Part shown: piece after piece, positions 10,851-28,235 of the stretch
Numbering within the stretch: position 1 is the first letter of the stretch
Layout: the number at the start of each line of letters is the position of its first letter
Virus genome (UHGV): UHGV-0135730
Direction: 5' to 3' (one strand)
Origin: a virus
DNA length: 54,321 nt
Program-made: the position numbers and the translations under genes
Notes under the pieces: generated by a model
Seen by the model: the letters and a program-made list of their open reading frames with translations, nothing else
Databases searched by the model: none
Told to the model about the DNA's origin: nothing

Positions 10851-10924
10851 CTTATTTCCCTCCGCACCGTAAACCTTTTGATTTCAGTTCACAAAACGGA
10901 TTCGCGATCACAATACAAAACGTA

Positions 10925-22723: not shown

Positions 22724-23383
22724 ATGAATAAACTTAAAGTAATTGGCGTGATTAGCCATCGTACTAACCCTGAGTGTTACCCATCGTTTGAGGTAACAAC
22801 ATGCCGCACAGAATATAATTTTGGATCATGCTATTTAATGGGCATTCGCGCTGACACTGGCGGCACTTATTCTGTTATGGCTGCAAGCTGGAAATTTGAA
22901 AAATACGATGATTTATCGAATAAGGATGATGACGGCATGAATAAAGAAAGTGAAGTTGTTGATGAATTAATCGAAGACGAACGCCGTGACTGCGAAACGA
23001 AACAAGAAAAAACGGAATGGAAGCCAGGAGAAAAGCCGCCGTGCGGCGTGTGGCTTGAATGTTATTATCCTGATGGTTATCTAGTTGGGATTGTAATGTT
23101 TAAATTTGTCGGTGATAAATTCGGTGTGTACACTGAAAAAGGCAGTAAACAGCAAGAACATACTATTGATTGGGGTTTTTGTAATTATTTTTTATATGTT
23201 GACCCGAAAGAAAAAGCACTTGCTGAAATCGCGTTTGCACTTGCTATCAAAGTTATGGGTGAAGACGCGGCAAAAGAGATTGACTTTAACCATGACAATG
23301 ATTTTTCGTGCGATTATCGCAATATGGCGCAAGCTATTATTGATGGATGTATCGGACACGTTGAATACACGGGGAAAAGATAA
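22724..23383 (+). CDS. Hypothetical protein (AT-rich, possible cargo)
   Basis: 219 aa ORF; lower GC. Confidence 0.5.
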   Translation: MNKLKVIGVISHRTNPECYPSFEVTTCRTEYNFGSCYLMGIRADTGGTYSVMAASWKFEKYDDLSNKDDDGMNKESEVVDELIEDERRDCETKQEKTEWKPGEKPPCGVWLECYYPDGYLVGIVMFKFVGDKFGVYTEKGSKQQEHTIDWGFCNYFLYVDPKEKALAEIAFALAIKVMGEDAAKEIDFNHDNDFSCDYRNMAQAIIDGCIGHVEYTGKR

Positions 23384-23613
23384 TGGATAAAACGGCAACA
23401 ATTCTTCTTAGTCGCCCTGCCATCTGCCGTATGCTTGGGGGAATTAGCAGGGGAACGTTCTATTCATGGCGTAAAAAGTGGGAGGAAAACGGAACTCCAT
23501 TCCCGGACCCTGTTGATGTGTTGGGGACCGGGAGGGGCGTCATGTACCGCTATCAGGATGTAATGCGGTTCTTTGATAAGATCGGATTAACGCCAGCCAG
23601 GGATAAGACGTAA
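23383..23613 (+). CDS. AlpA-family DNA-binding protein / excisionase candidate
   Basis: Short HTH protein (ICRMLGGISRGTFYSWRKK) adjacent to integrase; 3' end overlaps int 3' end convergently. Confidence 0.6.
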   Translation: MDKTATILLSRPAICRMLGGISRGTFYSWRKKWEENGTPFPDPVDVLGTGRGVMYRYQDVMRFFDKIGLTPARDKT

Positions 23614-24767
23614 TCCGCAAATTTATTTAACGCCTCCTTTTGTTCATCAAGATAATCATATTTGTCGTACACTGCCAGTATTCCTCTGAGTGAATGGCCT
23701 AATACCTTTTCCGCGATATGTACCGGAACACCTATAGCTGAAAGGTGTGTACGGCACGTCCTGCGGAGGTCGTGACAGGACCATGATTTGCCTCCCATCC
23801 TTTTACGCACGAAGATTGCAGCTACTTTTATCACTGATGCGTTTACTGGCTTGTTGCCGCCGTTAATCACTGGCGGGAACACATAATCATACTCATGGGA
23901 GGCTAATACCTCCCTGAGCATTTTTATCGACAAATCTGATAATCCCCGCCTGATTTCACTTCTTGTCTTCGCCACTGCCGCCGGGACGGTCCATACCCCG
24001 TTATCCAGGTCGAGGTGTTCCCTTCTCATTTTCTGCAACTCCCCCACCCTGCACCCAGTTAGCAATAATAGCCTTAATGCTATCTTGTTTTGACGGTAGA
24101 TCTGCGAATCATCCACCGTTCGCCAGAAATGGCCTATTTCATCGCATGATAAATAACGCTCGCCAACCGCATAATTTTCGCCTACGTCAACAACCCTGAT
24201 ATTGTTTATCGCTGTACTGGTCATTAGCCCGCGCCGGATAGCGCTGTTTACAACAATCTTCATTCGCTTAAGTATCAGCCCAGCCGTAACCGCGTGGCCC
24301 GCCGCAGTGATCTCGCCAAATATATCCATCCATTGCTTCGTGCTGACATCATCGGCAATATACTCACCGAATTTATCGACAACGTGGCGCTTAAGCGCGC
24401 TCCTGACGTCATTATATGCAACCAGCTTAATAACGTTCGGCAGGGATAAATAGTCACTCACAATGGCGCTTATTGTTAATTTGCCACGCTCAATATTTAT
24501 CGCTTGCTTTACTGAAACAGTCGGGTTCTTCCCCTTCGCTAATAGCTCTTTGTATTCTGCCACCGCGTAGCGTGCATCTTTCAATGTCATGTTGCCATAA
24601 TCGCCAATCTTCATCCTTACAGGTTTACCGTTGAACCTGTACCTGAACTGGAAAATGATTTTCCCCTTCGGGCTTATCCTGGCAGACAAGCCATCGCGAT
24701 CCGCTATCTCGTTCGGGCCGTCATATGGCTTGTTTGCTATTGCGCGTAATTTCGTATCCGTCAGCAT
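23553..24767 (-). CDS. int: Tyrosine integrase (P4-like)
   Basis: N-terminal arm-binding-like domain, C-terminal catalytic region with HDLRRT...HxxxH...Y. Confidence 0.85.
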   Translation of the reverse strand: MLTDTKLRAIANKPYDGPNEIADRDGLSARISPKGKIIFQFRYRFNGKPVRMKIGDYGNMTLKDARYAVAEYKELLAKGKNPTVSVKQAINIERGKLTISAIVSDYLSLPNVIKLVAYNDVRSALKRHVVDKFGEYIADDVSTKQWMDIFGEITAAGHAVTAGLILKRMKIVVNSAIRRGLMTSTAINNIRVVDVGENYAVGERYLSCDEIGHFWRTVDDSQIYRQNKIALRLLLLTGCRVGELQKMRREHLDLDNGVWTVPAAVAKTRSEIRRGLSDLSIKMLREVLASHEYDYVFPPVINGGNKPVNASVIKVAAIFVRKRMGGKSWSCHDLRRTCRTHLSAIGVPVHIAEKVLGHSLRGILAVYDKYDYLDEQKEALNKFADYVLSLAGVNPILSKNRITS

Positions 24768-24785
24768 TCTGATACCTCTTTTTTT

Positions 24786-25046
24786 TGGTCACGATTTGGT
24801 ACACATTTTTATCTGAACGGATATTAACACCATCGAACGGATTTAAACACACGACATGATGATTTATGCGTAACTTAGTGAATTTAAATGGTATTTTTTA
24901 TCAACCGTGAACGAGTATGAACAGGATTGAACACCACTAATCGTTACTGTCTGGAATGGTTAGCGCCGTGAATAATCACTTATAAAACAGTATGTTACAG
25001 TGCTTTTGCTTTTGGTTTTTGATATTTGGTCACAATTTGGTACACA
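24786..25046. other. attP-like region with arm-type direct repeats
   Basis: 20-bp direct repeats TGGTCAC(G/A)ATTTGGTACACA at 24786 and 25027; three GAAC(G/A)GAT(A/T)T(A/G)AACAC repeats at 24815, 24835, 24919; intergenic next to int. Confidence 0.5.
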
Positions 25047-25073
25047 AAAAGAAACGAGGCGTAAGCCTCGTTT
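25044..25073 (-). terminator. Rho-independent terminator after tail-fibre gene
   Basis: Hairpin CGAGG-CGTAAG-CCTCG followed on minus strand by TTTCTTTTTGT. Confidence 0.6.
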
Positions 25074-25103
25074 CGCGCGGCGATGTTCTTCGCACATCAC
25101 CTC

Positions 25104-28100
25104 TTATTCTTCGCTTCCTGTTAACTGCCGGACAAGCGCTTCAAGTTTTGCGATACGCTCATCCATTGCGGCAATGTTGGCGCGTAGGCTGGCGTTTTCC
25201 TCTTCCAGTTCGGTTACGCGGTTATCTGTTTCGCGTGCCACCTGGACAAGTAAACCAGTCACCGCCGCATAGTCAACATTGAGGTAACGAGTTTCCTCGC
25301 GTAGCTCGTTGCCGTCAGTGGTCGGGCCTTGTAACGCTTCACCGTAATGAGTAAATGATCCAACAGCTTCCGGCAGCGCCTCCATGACCTCCTGAGCGAT
25401 AACGCCAGCGTAAGGCAGGCCGTTTTCCTTAAGGGTATAAGTGTACCCGTTCATTTTACGGATTGCTTCGGTAGCGTCACCTATAACCTGAATGTTGTCT
25501 TTAAGATCGCGGTCTGATGTTTGGGTAACTGTTGTGCATGTAATACTACCTCCTACCTGCAACTGGGCAGAACCATCTGAGAGGTATTTAGCCATAAACA
25601 GTGATTTCAATGATGTCTCACTACTGTTTGTATCAGCCGCTATGACTTCATAATACAACGGGACAGATTTATCACCCCACGATACTATTTTGGCGTTCAC
25701 TGTCGATGATGCGGAACACTGATGTTTCATGAAACGTGTGTGCGTGCTATCAAAGACATAATGAACAGTAAAATGATTGTCTCCTGTCCATAAGTTTTTT
25801 GTGTCAAGCGTAGCAAGTTGATGCCAGCCTTTATCAACTCCCGCCTCAAAACTTCTTGCATAGAATGATGAGTTTCGCCCGGCGAACTGGGTGGCATGTG
25901 TACCGCTAAATCCAACATGAAAACCGCCATATGTAACGTTGCTTTCAGGTGCATTAACATTACCCGCAATAGGCTTAAAATTGTTTAAGCTACCTGACTG
26001 CTGCGTGTTCCAGTCAGCGCCAGTTTCTGCAGCGTAACCTTTAGACGATCCTATCGTGCCATTTATAGTTAGCTTCGGCATCGTCATAGATATTTCTTCG
26101 CCGACGGTAATCCCGCTAAACAGACCTACGCGAGCACCACTACAAATATAATGGAGTCCTTCAGTTGTTGCGGAATAAAAACCACAACGCCCCATCCTGA
26201 AGTCAAACATAACCTGTAGGTTTTTATATGAACCTAAAGGATCTGATACACCCCACGGGATGATCGTTTCTGTATCTTTACCACTATTATATACAACCTG
26301 GGCGGTTGGTACTTGTACTGTTACGCCTACAGGCAAGCGCATTTTAACAGGGAATGCCCTTGCTTCAACAAAAACAAAGAGCAAGTTTTCTTTGTCTTTG
26401 CTGGAACTGCAGATAGAATGTAAAGCGATTTCTTTGTCGGTATAGCGATTATAAAAACCGTACCCGGCATCTTTTCTGTCACTCCACCCGCCAGTCCTTA
26501 TATACCCTGAAAAGGTGTTACAGTTCATTGGGTAACTACCAGCGCCAGACGCTGTAACAATATCGACCTGATAGCCAGTCAGGTAAGCGTTGTAATAATT
26601 GGCGTTTATAATTATAGGGTAATACTTCCCATCCTCAACGCCTTCCGGTGCTTCGATTGTCATCAACTCGCCACCGCCTATGGTTGGGATATTGAGATTT
26701 CTCCTTGTCTGTTGAGCGTTCTTAGCTTTGAAAGAGTCGGCTATAAATTCGCCGTTCGCGGTAAGGCTGGCGTATTTGCTCACGCCGCCAGTTCTCAAAT
26801 GCATTGTTAGCTGATCAGGCTCAGTAAGATGCGTTTCTGGATACACAGCACCATAAACACGCTCCGTTCCTGTTGTACCAACCAAAGCGCTAGATAAAAG
26901 ACCACCAGCAACCCACCCGGTAGTTACGTCAGTAGCCCTTTTTAGTGAAACATTAAGGAACTGCGGGCTATTTGAAGACCCGACGCCGAGGTTTGCCCTT
27001 GCTGTCTCTGCATTTGTTGCACCAGTACCACCCTGAGCAACGGCGAGCGGGATCCATTTTTTCTGCGTGTCGCTGTAACAACCCCATAATGAGGCTGATA
27101 AACCCATGCGCATAGAGTTGTCAGCGTTATATATCCACGTCTCGCTTCCCCACTCATCAACCCTTTCTGTTACTACAATTTTCTTCCATGCGCTCCAACC
27201 TTCCCCGTTAAACACCCTTCTATAGCTGGTTTTTACATCGTTAAACACATAATAGGTCTGGATGCACCCCTTAGCGTCACCCGCGCCAGTTTTTTGCACT
27301 AACAGTGATCCCGCAACCTGTTTAGGGTAATTTAACTCAGGTTTTGCGTTTGCTGATAAATATTGATGATAAAAGCCTGCCGAGTCTCCTTTTAAATCAT
27401 CAAGATTCTGAGTCGAACTAAGGGAAGATTTTGCATCATGCATAACCATTAGGTTATTTCTGGCTTCTGCTGCGTTTCCTGCACCAGTACCGCCATACAT
27501 AATGCCTAACTTAATTGCCCCAGTTGTTGAATAAGCACCCCACCCAGTGTTATTAACGAAGATATAATTTTTCTTGTCCCCGTCCCATAACTGACTTTCT
27601 TTTGAGGAACCAGCACTTTGAAGTAAGCGATCCACTTCATCCTTGCGTGCGTGGCGTGTCCAGTTCGCGCCTGATGATGCAATCCATGTATAGGTATAAA
27701 GTGATCGCGTAGACCAGCCGACAAAGACGCCTGTATATGAAGGCGTTGTGTCTCGTTGACAGATAAATCCACTCAAAAATGATTCACCAGCCGCCACGGA
27801 AGGAAAACCCTTAGTCGTTTCCTTTATGCGCAAAAATCCAACGTAAGAAGACGGATTGCCTGATATATCGGTGCAATCTCGCGGCTCTGGCCCCAAGCCA
27901 ATATTGCTGCCATCTATTGCGCTGGATATTTCATCTTCCTTTTCCTGATAAAAACGAAGCGTTTCCGCTACATCCTGAGCAAGCCCATCAACTGAGATCG
28001 AGTCAGAAAGCAGAATGCTAAATTTTGTCCCGGCAGCGATTGCAGGGCTAGCCGCTGGCGTTACTGACAGTTCAGTACCGCTCTTGATTTCAGTAATGGT

Positions 28101-28235
28101 AAAGATCTGGATAGGGTTGCTAATAGCAATAAGCGTGCAACCTACACGAATGAGAGAAAGCGGCGCGGAGAAGTTTGTGCCCGTGCCTTTAACAGTGTTG
28201 CCGTTGATGGCAATTGTTCCAGTTGTGTAAATCAT
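25104..28235 (-). CDS. Side tail fibre with C-terminal intramolecular chaperone (S74-like) domain
   Basis: 1043 aa; C-terminal TSDRDLKDNIQVIGDATEAIRKMNGYTY...coiled coil resembles self-cleaving chaperone domains of tail fibres/tailspikes. Confidence 0.75.
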   Translation of the reverse strand: MIYTTGTIAINGNTVKGTGTNFSAPLSLIRVGCTLIAISNPIQIFTITEIKSGTELSVTPAASPAIAAGTKFSILLSDSISVDGLAQDVAETLRFYQEKEDEISSAIDGSNIGLGPEPRDCTDISGNPSSYVGFLRIKETTKGFPSVAAGESFLSGFICQRDTTPSYTGVFVGWSTRSLYTYTWIASSGANWTRHARKDEVDRLLQSAGSSKESQLWDGDKKNYIFVNNTGWGAYSTTGAIKLGIMYGGTGAGNAAEARNNLMVMHDAKSSLSSTQNLDDLKGDSAGFYHQYLSANAKPELNYPKQVAGSLLVQKTGAGDAKGCIQTYYVFNDVKTSYRRVFNGEGWSAWKKIVVTERVDEWGSETWIYNADNSMRMGLSASLWGCYSDTQKKWIPLAVAQGGTGATNAETARANLGVGSSNSPQFLNVSLKRATDVTTGWVAGGLLSSALVGTTGTERVYGAVYPETHLTEPDQLTMHLRTGGVSKYASLTANGEFIADSFKAKNAQQTRRNLNIPTIGGGELMTIEAPEGVEDGKYYPIIINANYYNAYLTGYQVDIVTASGAGSYPMNCNTFSGYIRTGGWSDRKDAGYGFYNRYTDKEIALHSICSSSKDKENLLFVFVEARAFPVKMRLPVGVTVQVPTAQVVYNSGKDTETIIPWGVSDPLGSYKNLQVMFDFRMGRCGFYSATTEGLHYICSGARVGLFSGITVGEEISMTMPKLTINGTIGSSKGYAAETGADWNTQQSGSLNNFKPIAGNVNAPESNVTYGGFHVGFSGTHATQFAGRNSSFYARSFEAGVDKGWHQLATLDTKNLWTGDNHFTVHYVFDSTHTRFMKHQCSASSTVNAKIVSWGDKSVPLYYEVIAADTNSSETSLKSLFMAKYLSDGSAQLQVGGSITCTTVTQTSDRDLKDNIQVIGDATEAIRKMNGYTYTLKENGLPYAGVIAQEVMEALPEAVGSFTHYGEALQGPTTDGNELREETRYLNVDYAAVTGLLVQVARETDNRVTELEEENASLRANIAAMDERIAKLEALVRQLTGSEE

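Follow-up and report, generated by a model that had tools for sequence, protein, structure and literature searches.

Base-level anatomy of a probable attP with paired outer repeats and phased inner repeats beside the P4-type integrase gene of a mEp021-group coliphage

The virus genome UHGV-0135730 carries a short run of nested repeats beside a tyrosine integrase gene, which raises the question of where this phage recombines with its host chromosome and which protein binds which repeat. The window, meaning the whole stretch of DNA analysed, is 54,321 nucleotides in length. A first-pass annotation had described the segment as an attP-like region, AT-rich, bracketed by two 20-bp direct repeats and located immediately upstream of int. 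Both repeats were present (TGGTCACGATTTGGTACACA at 24786-24805 and TGGTCACAATTTGGTACACA at 25027-25046), and each was the inner 20 bases of a 22-bp repeat, TTTGGTCACRATTTGGTACACA, the two copies reading TTTGGTCACGATTTGGTACACA at 24784-24805 and TTTGGTCACAATTTGGTACACA at 25025-25046. A search allowing up to 3 mismatches returned 2 matches to the 22-bp repeat in total from the 54,321 bases and none from 100 dinucleotide-preserving shuffles. The G+C content was 33-37% between the repeats relative to 45-55% in the flanks, and the ATG of int was 16 nt from the nearer 22-bp repeat. We consider it likely that the 263 bp at 24784-25046 act as attP for a temperate coliphage belonging to the mEp021 (mEpimmI) group, served by the adjoining P4-type heterobivalent integrase, including the site assignments proposed below. 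The genes and outer elements of the locus were as follows.

23383-23613, plus strand: small helix-turn-helix (HTH) gene encoding a 76-aa winged helix-turn-helix protein, a candidate recombination directionality factor (excisionase, AlpA/Vis-like by fold)
23553-24767, minus strand: int, encoding a 404-aa P4-type tyrosine integrase with an N-terminal arm-DNA-binding domain
23553-23613: convergent 3'-3' overlap of these two genes, 61 bp, from the ORF coordinates
24784-24805: P-arm pair, units TTTGGTCACGA and TTTGGTACACA (TGTGTACCAAA and TCGTGACCAAA on the int strand), candidate Int arm-type sites
25025-25046: P'-arm pair, units TTTGGTCACAA and TTTGGTACACA, oriented like the P-arm pair, candidate Int arm-type sites
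25051-25074, minus strand: intrinsic terminator of the tail-fibre gene (25104-28235, minus strand), bounding attP

The integrase matched the Pfam models Arm-DNA-bind_3 (PF13356, DUF4102) at residues 2-88 (E 1.4e-20) and Phage_integrase (PF00589) at residues 206-367 (E 6.4e-21). Identity to P4 Int was 24% over the full length, and R240, H332-x-x-R335, H358 and Y367 were aligned with P4 Int residues, while the NCBIfam integrase-domain model PRK09692 scored 92 bits, far under its 434-bit cutoff. The gene adjoining attP therefore encodes a tyrosine recombinase with a separate arm-binding N-terminal domain, as in the heterobivalent paradigm. The terminator on the other side of attP has a 10-bp perfect stem followed by a T-run (-18.5 kcal/mol, z -3.2 relative to shuffles), and the mEp010 and mEp554 records annotate a terminator at the same position. 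Small ORFs inside attP, for example one of 43 aa on the minus strand (24721-24852), overlap the repeat arrays and are without family support; the mEp554 equivalent of this example is annotated as a hypothetical protein. A scan of 23300-25400 for known RNA families found none, the sole match scoring 15 bits relative to a 229-bit threshold.

The comparison with bacterial genomes that had been suggested as a check was carried out. Complete E. coli genomes contained the left part of the region (to window position 24955) and the right part (from 24947) as separate pieces, at opposite ends of prophages inserted between zntB and smrA. The int-side junction (attL) of lysogen MIN12 read AATCGTTACTGTCTGGA joined to TCGTTTCGCCC and the other junction (attR) CACCAGTCCTGTCTGGA joined to ATGGTTAG, while the empty attB of K-12 was CTCACCAGTCCTGTCTGGATCGTTTCGCCC, corresponding to codons 11-20 of dgcM (ydaM). 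Common to attP and attB, and present at both MIN12 junctions, was the 9-bp sequence CTGTCTGGA, located at window 24947-24955 and in dgcM codons 15-17. As attP and attB both hold these bases, strand exchange must fall inside 24947-24955. The attL and attR of Ecol_244 together with the empty K-12 site placed the junction at the same positions, and the sequence in common with attB in the Ecol_244 type was GTCCTGTCTGGA. Host recombination takes place within CTGTCTGGA (24947-24955), so that the lysogen junctions map inside the bracketed segment and not elsewhere in the genome, in agreement with the attP-like region originally suggested.

Across int and the adjoining arm the window was 92-95% identical to mEp554, mEp021 and mEp515 (92% for mEp021), and position 1 of the GenBank records of these three phages aligned to window 24952-24955, just beyond the core. 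The mEp021 (mEpimmI) coliphages, as described in the main text of PMC11893012, are like the present phage in group, integrase type and insertion site at the ydaM/dgcM 5' end. The same text reports that the mEp021 insertion was validated by PCR and sequencing of both junctions, and that most prophages of the mEpimmI group sit in the ydaM 5' end (PMC11893012, 2025). It names integrase types and short att motifs, the words attP, excisionase and Xis are absent from the main text, and in its main-text passages no description of arm-type repeats or of an int overlap was found. The mEp021 and window type had 9 bp in common with attB relative to 12 bp in the Ecol_244 type, and Ecol_244 is listed there as Ia, while the Ib motif is said to have three extra base pairs (PMC11893012). 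Phages mEp021, mEp515 and mEp554 are given as group Ib in Table 2 and as type Ia in the text of that paper, a mismatch that is probably a matter of labelling.

The core was divided into three elements.

24936-24946: C site ACTAATCGTTA, proposed
24947-24953: overlap CTGTCTG, proposed
24954-24964: C' site GAATGGTTAGC, proposed

The C and C' sites form an imperfect inverted repeat in which 7/11 positions are complementary. The same plan is clearer in the type II phages, which are inserted in abgT and have the core GTTATCCGCTT-ATCTTTT-GAATGGATAAC, and the bases GAATGG start the right-hand core site in all integrase types. Because the flanking inverted repeat recurs in the type II core and GAATGG is common to all types, 24947-24953 is proposed as the 7-bp overlap.

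As the crossover lies in dgcM codons 15-17, integration splits dgcM, and the relevant coordinates were as follows.

Window 24947-24964; L002 3441-4636; L011 1894-3075; L003 2959-3020: dgcM split

After integration the dgcM promoter and 17 native codons run into phage DNA, where a stop follows two codons on, while the promoterless rest of dgcM adjoins int. DgcM, which regulates curli and biofilm, should be missing from lysogens and should return on precise excision. A more doubtful possibility is that this reversible splitting makes the prophage act as a switch for curli and biofilm regulation. The dgcM remainder is treated in two ways in RefSeq, as a frameshifted pseudogene in MIN12 and as an ordinary dgcM CDS in Ecol_244, where it is 51 nt (17 codons) shorter than in K-12. 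A further prophage, in E. coli MLI107 (NZ_CP116987.1, L003, H70), had a type-I-like dgcM junction on its tail-fibre side and an int-side match that fell in the low-identity group (~69%), together with the abgT-inserted type II strains. From these sequences it looks like a hybrid of two junction types. In the main text of PMC11893012 MLI107 is placed in integrase group II with a deletion of >7 kb at the insertion region.

A tRNA or tmRNA 3' end, the typical though not defining target of P4-type integrases, was rejected as the target here, the insertion site being a coding sequence. P4 itself targets a tRNA-Leu gene, in contrast to the dgcM coding sequence found here. The 54,321-nt window contained no tRNA. 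Related integrases were surveyed by an integrase-alignment search with one genome per species, which gave 20 loci (L052-L071) with Int identities of 31-45% from Escherichia sp., Citrobacter, Atlantibacter, Sodalis, Xenorhabdus, Morganella, Pantoea, Mixta, Aeromonas and Acinetobacter. Near the int genes of 8 of these loci, from 8 genera, no tRNA, tmRNA or Rfam family was found (7 loci in the Rfam scan), and the clade therefore seems to target protein-coding or intergenic sites. Loci L052-L057 have in common a conserved stretch, TATGTGATCTTTCGTGTAAGT, which is located ~200 bp upstream of int and is a possible core for them.

Each outer 22-bp repeat proved to be a tandem pair of 11-bp units, TTTGGTCACNN and TTTGGTACACA. 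Measured from the overlap centre, the pairs lie at roughly -166 to -145 on one side and +75 to +96 on the other, at the outer ends of both arms. Candidate arm-type repeats unlike the core sites are thus present on both arms, as the heterobivalent paradigm requires. All of integrase types Ia, Ib and II had them at both positions, with 20-22 of 22 bases identical. Between types I and II the proteins were less alike, with identities of 44-47% in the catalytic part of the integrase, 60-64% in its N-domain and 46-51% in the small protein. The int 5' end next to the P-arm copy had ~69% DNA identity between types, and the P-arm copy therefore sits inside a diverged cassette, yet retains 20-22 of 22 bases. 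A possible third TTTGGT unit (25011-25016) lacks the CAC part, is not conserved and was discarded as an arm site.

Tandem direct repeats of 11-12 bp were located ~10-65 bp upstream of the int start in 19 of the 20 related loci. The exception, Acinetobacter gerneri L071, had a single copy and a broken int reading frame. Repeat sequence varied with the integrase N-domain. Repeats of the GTGTACCAAA type accompany the motif KPYDGPxE (residues 13-20) even in distant relatives, the outer repeat TGTGTACATAA occurs in Xenorhabdus and Morganella with the motif VKRESLVE or VEREKLTE, and TGTACATAT occurs in Acinetobacter with KSREKVEV. In two genera the outer and inner repeats varied separately. Xenorhabdus has the small-protein recognition helix (SRTTFYRKR) and inner GTTTCA repeats of its enterobacterial relatives with a different outer repeat. 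In Pantoea the N-domain motif and an outer repeat of GTAC(C)A form are retained, yet the small protein is another one and the inner repeats are of the ATGTAT type. Since their sequence changes with the N-terminal arm-binding domain, the outer pairs are probably Int arm-type sites. The assignments of proteins to repeats, here and below, rest on position and on covariation across about six lineages.

Between the P-arm pair and the core were further repeats and one weak candidate site.

24814-24849: inner cluster B, four TNAACR units at 24814, 24824, 24834 and 24844, in exact 10-bp phase
24899-24911, plus strand: IHF-like match TATCAACCGTGAA in the spacer between the inner clusters, with a T-run before it, weak candidate
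24908-24933: inner cluster A, three TGAACR units at 24908, 24918 and 24928, adjoining the core

Three repeats of a GAACGG type had been noted in this segment, and the corresponding 16-mers were present at 24815, 24835 and 24909 (100, 88 and 75% identity to the first), but they are better read as seven TNAACR units. Phased TNAACR triples occurred 3 times in the window, all in the attP segment, relative to 0.02 expected, a figure that overstates the significance since the pattern was chosen after seeing the data. The inner pentamers were kept in mEp021 with differing 5-bp spacers. Type II phages kept the four-plus-three layout with the motif ACGAT at 10-bp spacing, and the recognition helix of their small protein was SKSAFFKLV as opposed to SRGTFYSWR here. 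The inner units are confined to a single arm, in the stretch from its outer pair to the core, and recur once per helical turn. Winged-helix excisionases and their relatives (lambda Xis, BldC and the RdfS model) have one DNA turn between bound molecules (PMC11963761). This match in placement is the reason for assigning the inner units to the small winged-helix protein, and we give about an even chance to that protein binding them. The link is weakened by Acinetobacter, in which GTT(T)CA-type inner repeats persist although the small protein is barely alignable. The nested repeats had all been taken as arm-type; the outer pairs fit that description and Int, whereas the inner phased units fit the winged-helix protein better. 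The IHF-like sequence had 2 mismatches to WATCAANNNNTTR, and such matches are not discriminating because eight of this quality occur in the region, seven of them elsewhere.

The small protein had been called AlpA-like, which holds for its AlpA/excisionase fold and likely role but not for family membership by sequence profile, as the Pfam AlpA model was unmatched. Its best structural matches were excisionases, the fold being that of a winged helix-turn-helix excisionase. With Pfam, PF05930 (Phage_AlpA) gave no match to the small protein and HTH_23, HTH_28 and HTH_29 were the only families detected. The PHROG family phrog_66, described as excisionase and transcriptional regulator, matched with an E value of 0.008, the Gifsy-1 Xis model reached 17 bits relative to a cutoff of 60, and a PDB sequence search found nothing relevant. 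Identity to P4 Vis was about 31% over 59 aa. An exhaustive profile search of 1.8 billion proteins placed the family in 19 representative clusters, and the 10 scanned of its 18 further relatives matched generic HTH families or none. On the position of the phased repeats on the int-proximal arm and their covariation with the recognition helix, the protein is a candidate excisionase-like partner that would bind the attP-arm repeats. Directly upstream of its gene is a 219-aa ORF (22724-23383, plus strand) with no Pfam or PHROG match, and its equivalents at the same position in mEp021, MIN12 and mEp010 are annotated as hypothetical proteins.

The assignment of the two repeat families could be reversed, with the TNAACR units as the Int arm-type sites and the 22-bp elements bound by the winged-helix protein or by a conserved host or phage regulator of int. 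A 22-bp element beside the int start would suit an operator, the GTT(T)CA inner repeats are conserved wherever the Int beta-sheet motif FQ[YF]RYRFNGK is conserved, including in Acinetobacter with its diverged small protein, and arm-type sites can be numerous, with seven in mycobacteriophage L5. We regard this reversal as decidedly improbable, as heterobivalent integrases bridge both arms and the inner units are on one arm only. Moreover, Pantoea and Mixta keep the N-domain motif without GTTCA-type inner repeats, the inner motif of type II phages changes while the N-domain beta-sheet residues do not, and the P4 record labels tandem pairs at equivalent outer positions as arm repeats. A reading in which the 22-bp repeats bind no protein but are conserved flanks or scars bordering an int-att cassette that can be exchanged, the true arm sites lying in other positions, can hardly be credited. 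The P' copy does lie in sequence conserved across integrase types, from ~25004 rightwards, and in two metagenomic contigs the whole stretch from one copy to the other is gone, which points to recombination or slippage between the repeats. The P copy, by contrast, is within the diverged cassette and still has 20-22 of 22 bases conserved, comparable tandem repeats precede int in eight other genera, in elements that are unrelated, and the layout agrees with P4.

It is also unlikely that the small protein is chiefly a transcriptional regulator of int, whether activator or repressor, rather than an excisionase, with the inner repeats as its operator. AlpA is a transcriptional regulator of int, Pfam detects generic HTH families only, and cluster B sits where the -35 of any int promoter must be. 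RdfS stimulates intS transcription (PMC11963761) and TorI and Vis repress int (PMC2951348). Regulation of this kind is nevertheless compatible with a directionality role because Vis, TorI and RdfS do both. Against a chiefly regulatory function, excisionases are the best structural matches and cluster A adjoins the core and is 110-135 bp away from the arm sites, a placement more in keeping with an intasome than with control of a promoter. We retain the outer pairs as probable Int sites and the inner units as candidate sites for an excisionase-like protein.

The boundary between the int-att cassette and the sequence common to all integrase types was located near window 25004, ~20 bp to the left of the P' arm pair. 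From 25004 rightwards the type II phages matched the window at 90-94%, and on the other side they had no match. The two contigs mentioned above, IMG/VR 3300045988_076816 (L028 ~10855-10875) and 3300045988_064823 (L041 ~537-557), run from the int start through a single 22-bp element to the tail-fibre terminator. Both are without the attP interior (core and inner repeats), as if the direct repeats had recombined, and represent either a real integration-defective variant or an assembly collapse.

The 61-bp overlap reported for the 3' ends of int and the AlpA-like gene was reproduced at 23553-23613, with the genes tail to tail. From the CDS coordinates of the records, the overlap was 61 bp in mEp021, 43 bp in mEp010 and UMNK88 (type II) and 37 bp in Ecol_244. 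In the loci of Escherichia sp., Citrobacter, Atlantibacter, Sodalis and Xenorhabdus it was 25-46 bp, in Acinetobacter 91 bp and in Pantoea 20 bp. As judged from gene coordinates, an overlap of 20-91 bp is conserved in every lineage of the integrase clade where the small gene was found. The overlapped codons are the variable C-terminal tails of both proteins. Putative terminator hairpins at 24714-24732 (plus strand) and 23505-23490 (minus strand) folded no better than shuffles (z -0.56 and -0.28) and were unusable as evidence of transcript ends; with hairpins this weak, either transcript may extend far into the opposite gene. An early lytic transcript through the excisionase-like gene would be antisense to int, and the reverse would apply likewise. 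A more doubtful proposal is that the overlap is a working part of the switch rather than compaction alone, in which case antisense or transcriptional interference, or RNA pairing, would set the ratio of Int to excisionase and hence the direction of recombination. A literature search on convergent int/xis overlap found nothing usable.

Transcription of int runs away from the core, and the int promoter must therefore be located in the P arm. A scan of the int strand for a sigma-70 consensus promoter found none, with a relaxed scan giving 8/12 matches only, and a search for CII-type TTGC-N6-TTGC sites gave poor matches only. One candidate element was located.

24806-24811, minus strand: A/T hexamer TAAAAA (int strand) directly 5' of the P-arm pair, candidate -10 of the int promoter

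Hexamers resembling TAAAAT, TAGAAT or TAATAT were found at the same position in most members of the clade, among them mEp021, the type II phages, L052, L054, L057 and L068.

A working scheme for the site can be proposed. The catalytic and core-binding domains of Int would bind the imperfect inverted sites around the 7-bp overlap (24936-24964), while the Arm-DNA-bind_3 N-domain would bind the two tandem 11-bp pairs, giving four arm sites for an Int tetramer, and the DNA would bend in the AT-rich spacer between the arm sites. On the int-proximal arm, molecules of the 76-aa protein may line up head to tail over the seven TNAACR units, one to each helical turn, and from these inner units direct the reaction towards excision. 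If the hexamer is the -10 element, Int on the P-arm pair would sit just downstream of it and overlie the transcription start, with the small protein on cluster B placed over the -35 region, so that both proteins may also regulate int as in P4 and KplE1. Repression of int by Int and its small partner was shown experimentally in KplE1 and is reported for P4, where Int and Vis are the negative regulators (cited in PMC2951348). In KplE1 the transcription of int is also uncoupled from that of the excisionase gene (PMC2951348).

Several known systems share parts of this arrangement. P4 likewise has an Arm-DNA-bind_3 integrase transcribed away from attP and an AlpA/Vis-type small winged-helix partner, and its record annotates pairs of tandem 12-bp repeats ('attP arm sequence repeat'), 16-39 bp upstream of int and again beyond the core. 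The P4 arm pairs are also in direct orientation, with a spacing of 209 bp relative to 241 bp here, and the arm motif is TTGGGGGCAT in P4 and TTTGGTMAC here. The vis gene is far from int in P4, whereas here the small gene and int overlap convergently. Phage lambda attP follows the same overall logic, with a 7-bp-overlap core, excisionase sites confined to one of the arms and arm-type sites on either side, at ~-150 and +80. It differs in that the arm-binding domain is of another family and int is transcribed towards attP together with xis. The IntS-TorI system of KplE1/HK620 is like the arrangement proposed here in having the int promoter inside an att arm with Int arm-type and several excisionase sites (PMC2951348). 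The IntS arm consensus of ICEMlSymR7A, TGKTGGTATC, has TGGTA in common with the outer units here (PMC11963761). That element differs in being an integrative conjugative element with rdfS far from intS, and its RdfS sites are without consensus, in contrast to the clearly repeated, phased units found here.

The layout is thus ordinary for P4-type integrases, the insertion site has already been published for close relatives and the current understanding of site-specific recombination is unchanged by these findings. New here are the base-level anatomy of attP and the conservation of the module across genera in a non-tRNA integrase clade. For a common group of gut coliphages, base-level attP coordinates are now available for the core and for the probable arm and excisionase sites, a map that would help with integration vectors, with the calling of prophage boundaries and with the interpretation of E. 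coli genomes in which dgcM is disrupted. The covariation of repeats with the N-domain also provides a small natural dataset for the DNA specificity of Arm-DNA-bind_3. Taken across genera, the sequence comparisons suggest that this integrase clade carries a fixed module consisting of tandem arm repeats at the int start, two phased inner clusters and a convergently overlapping excisionase-like gene.
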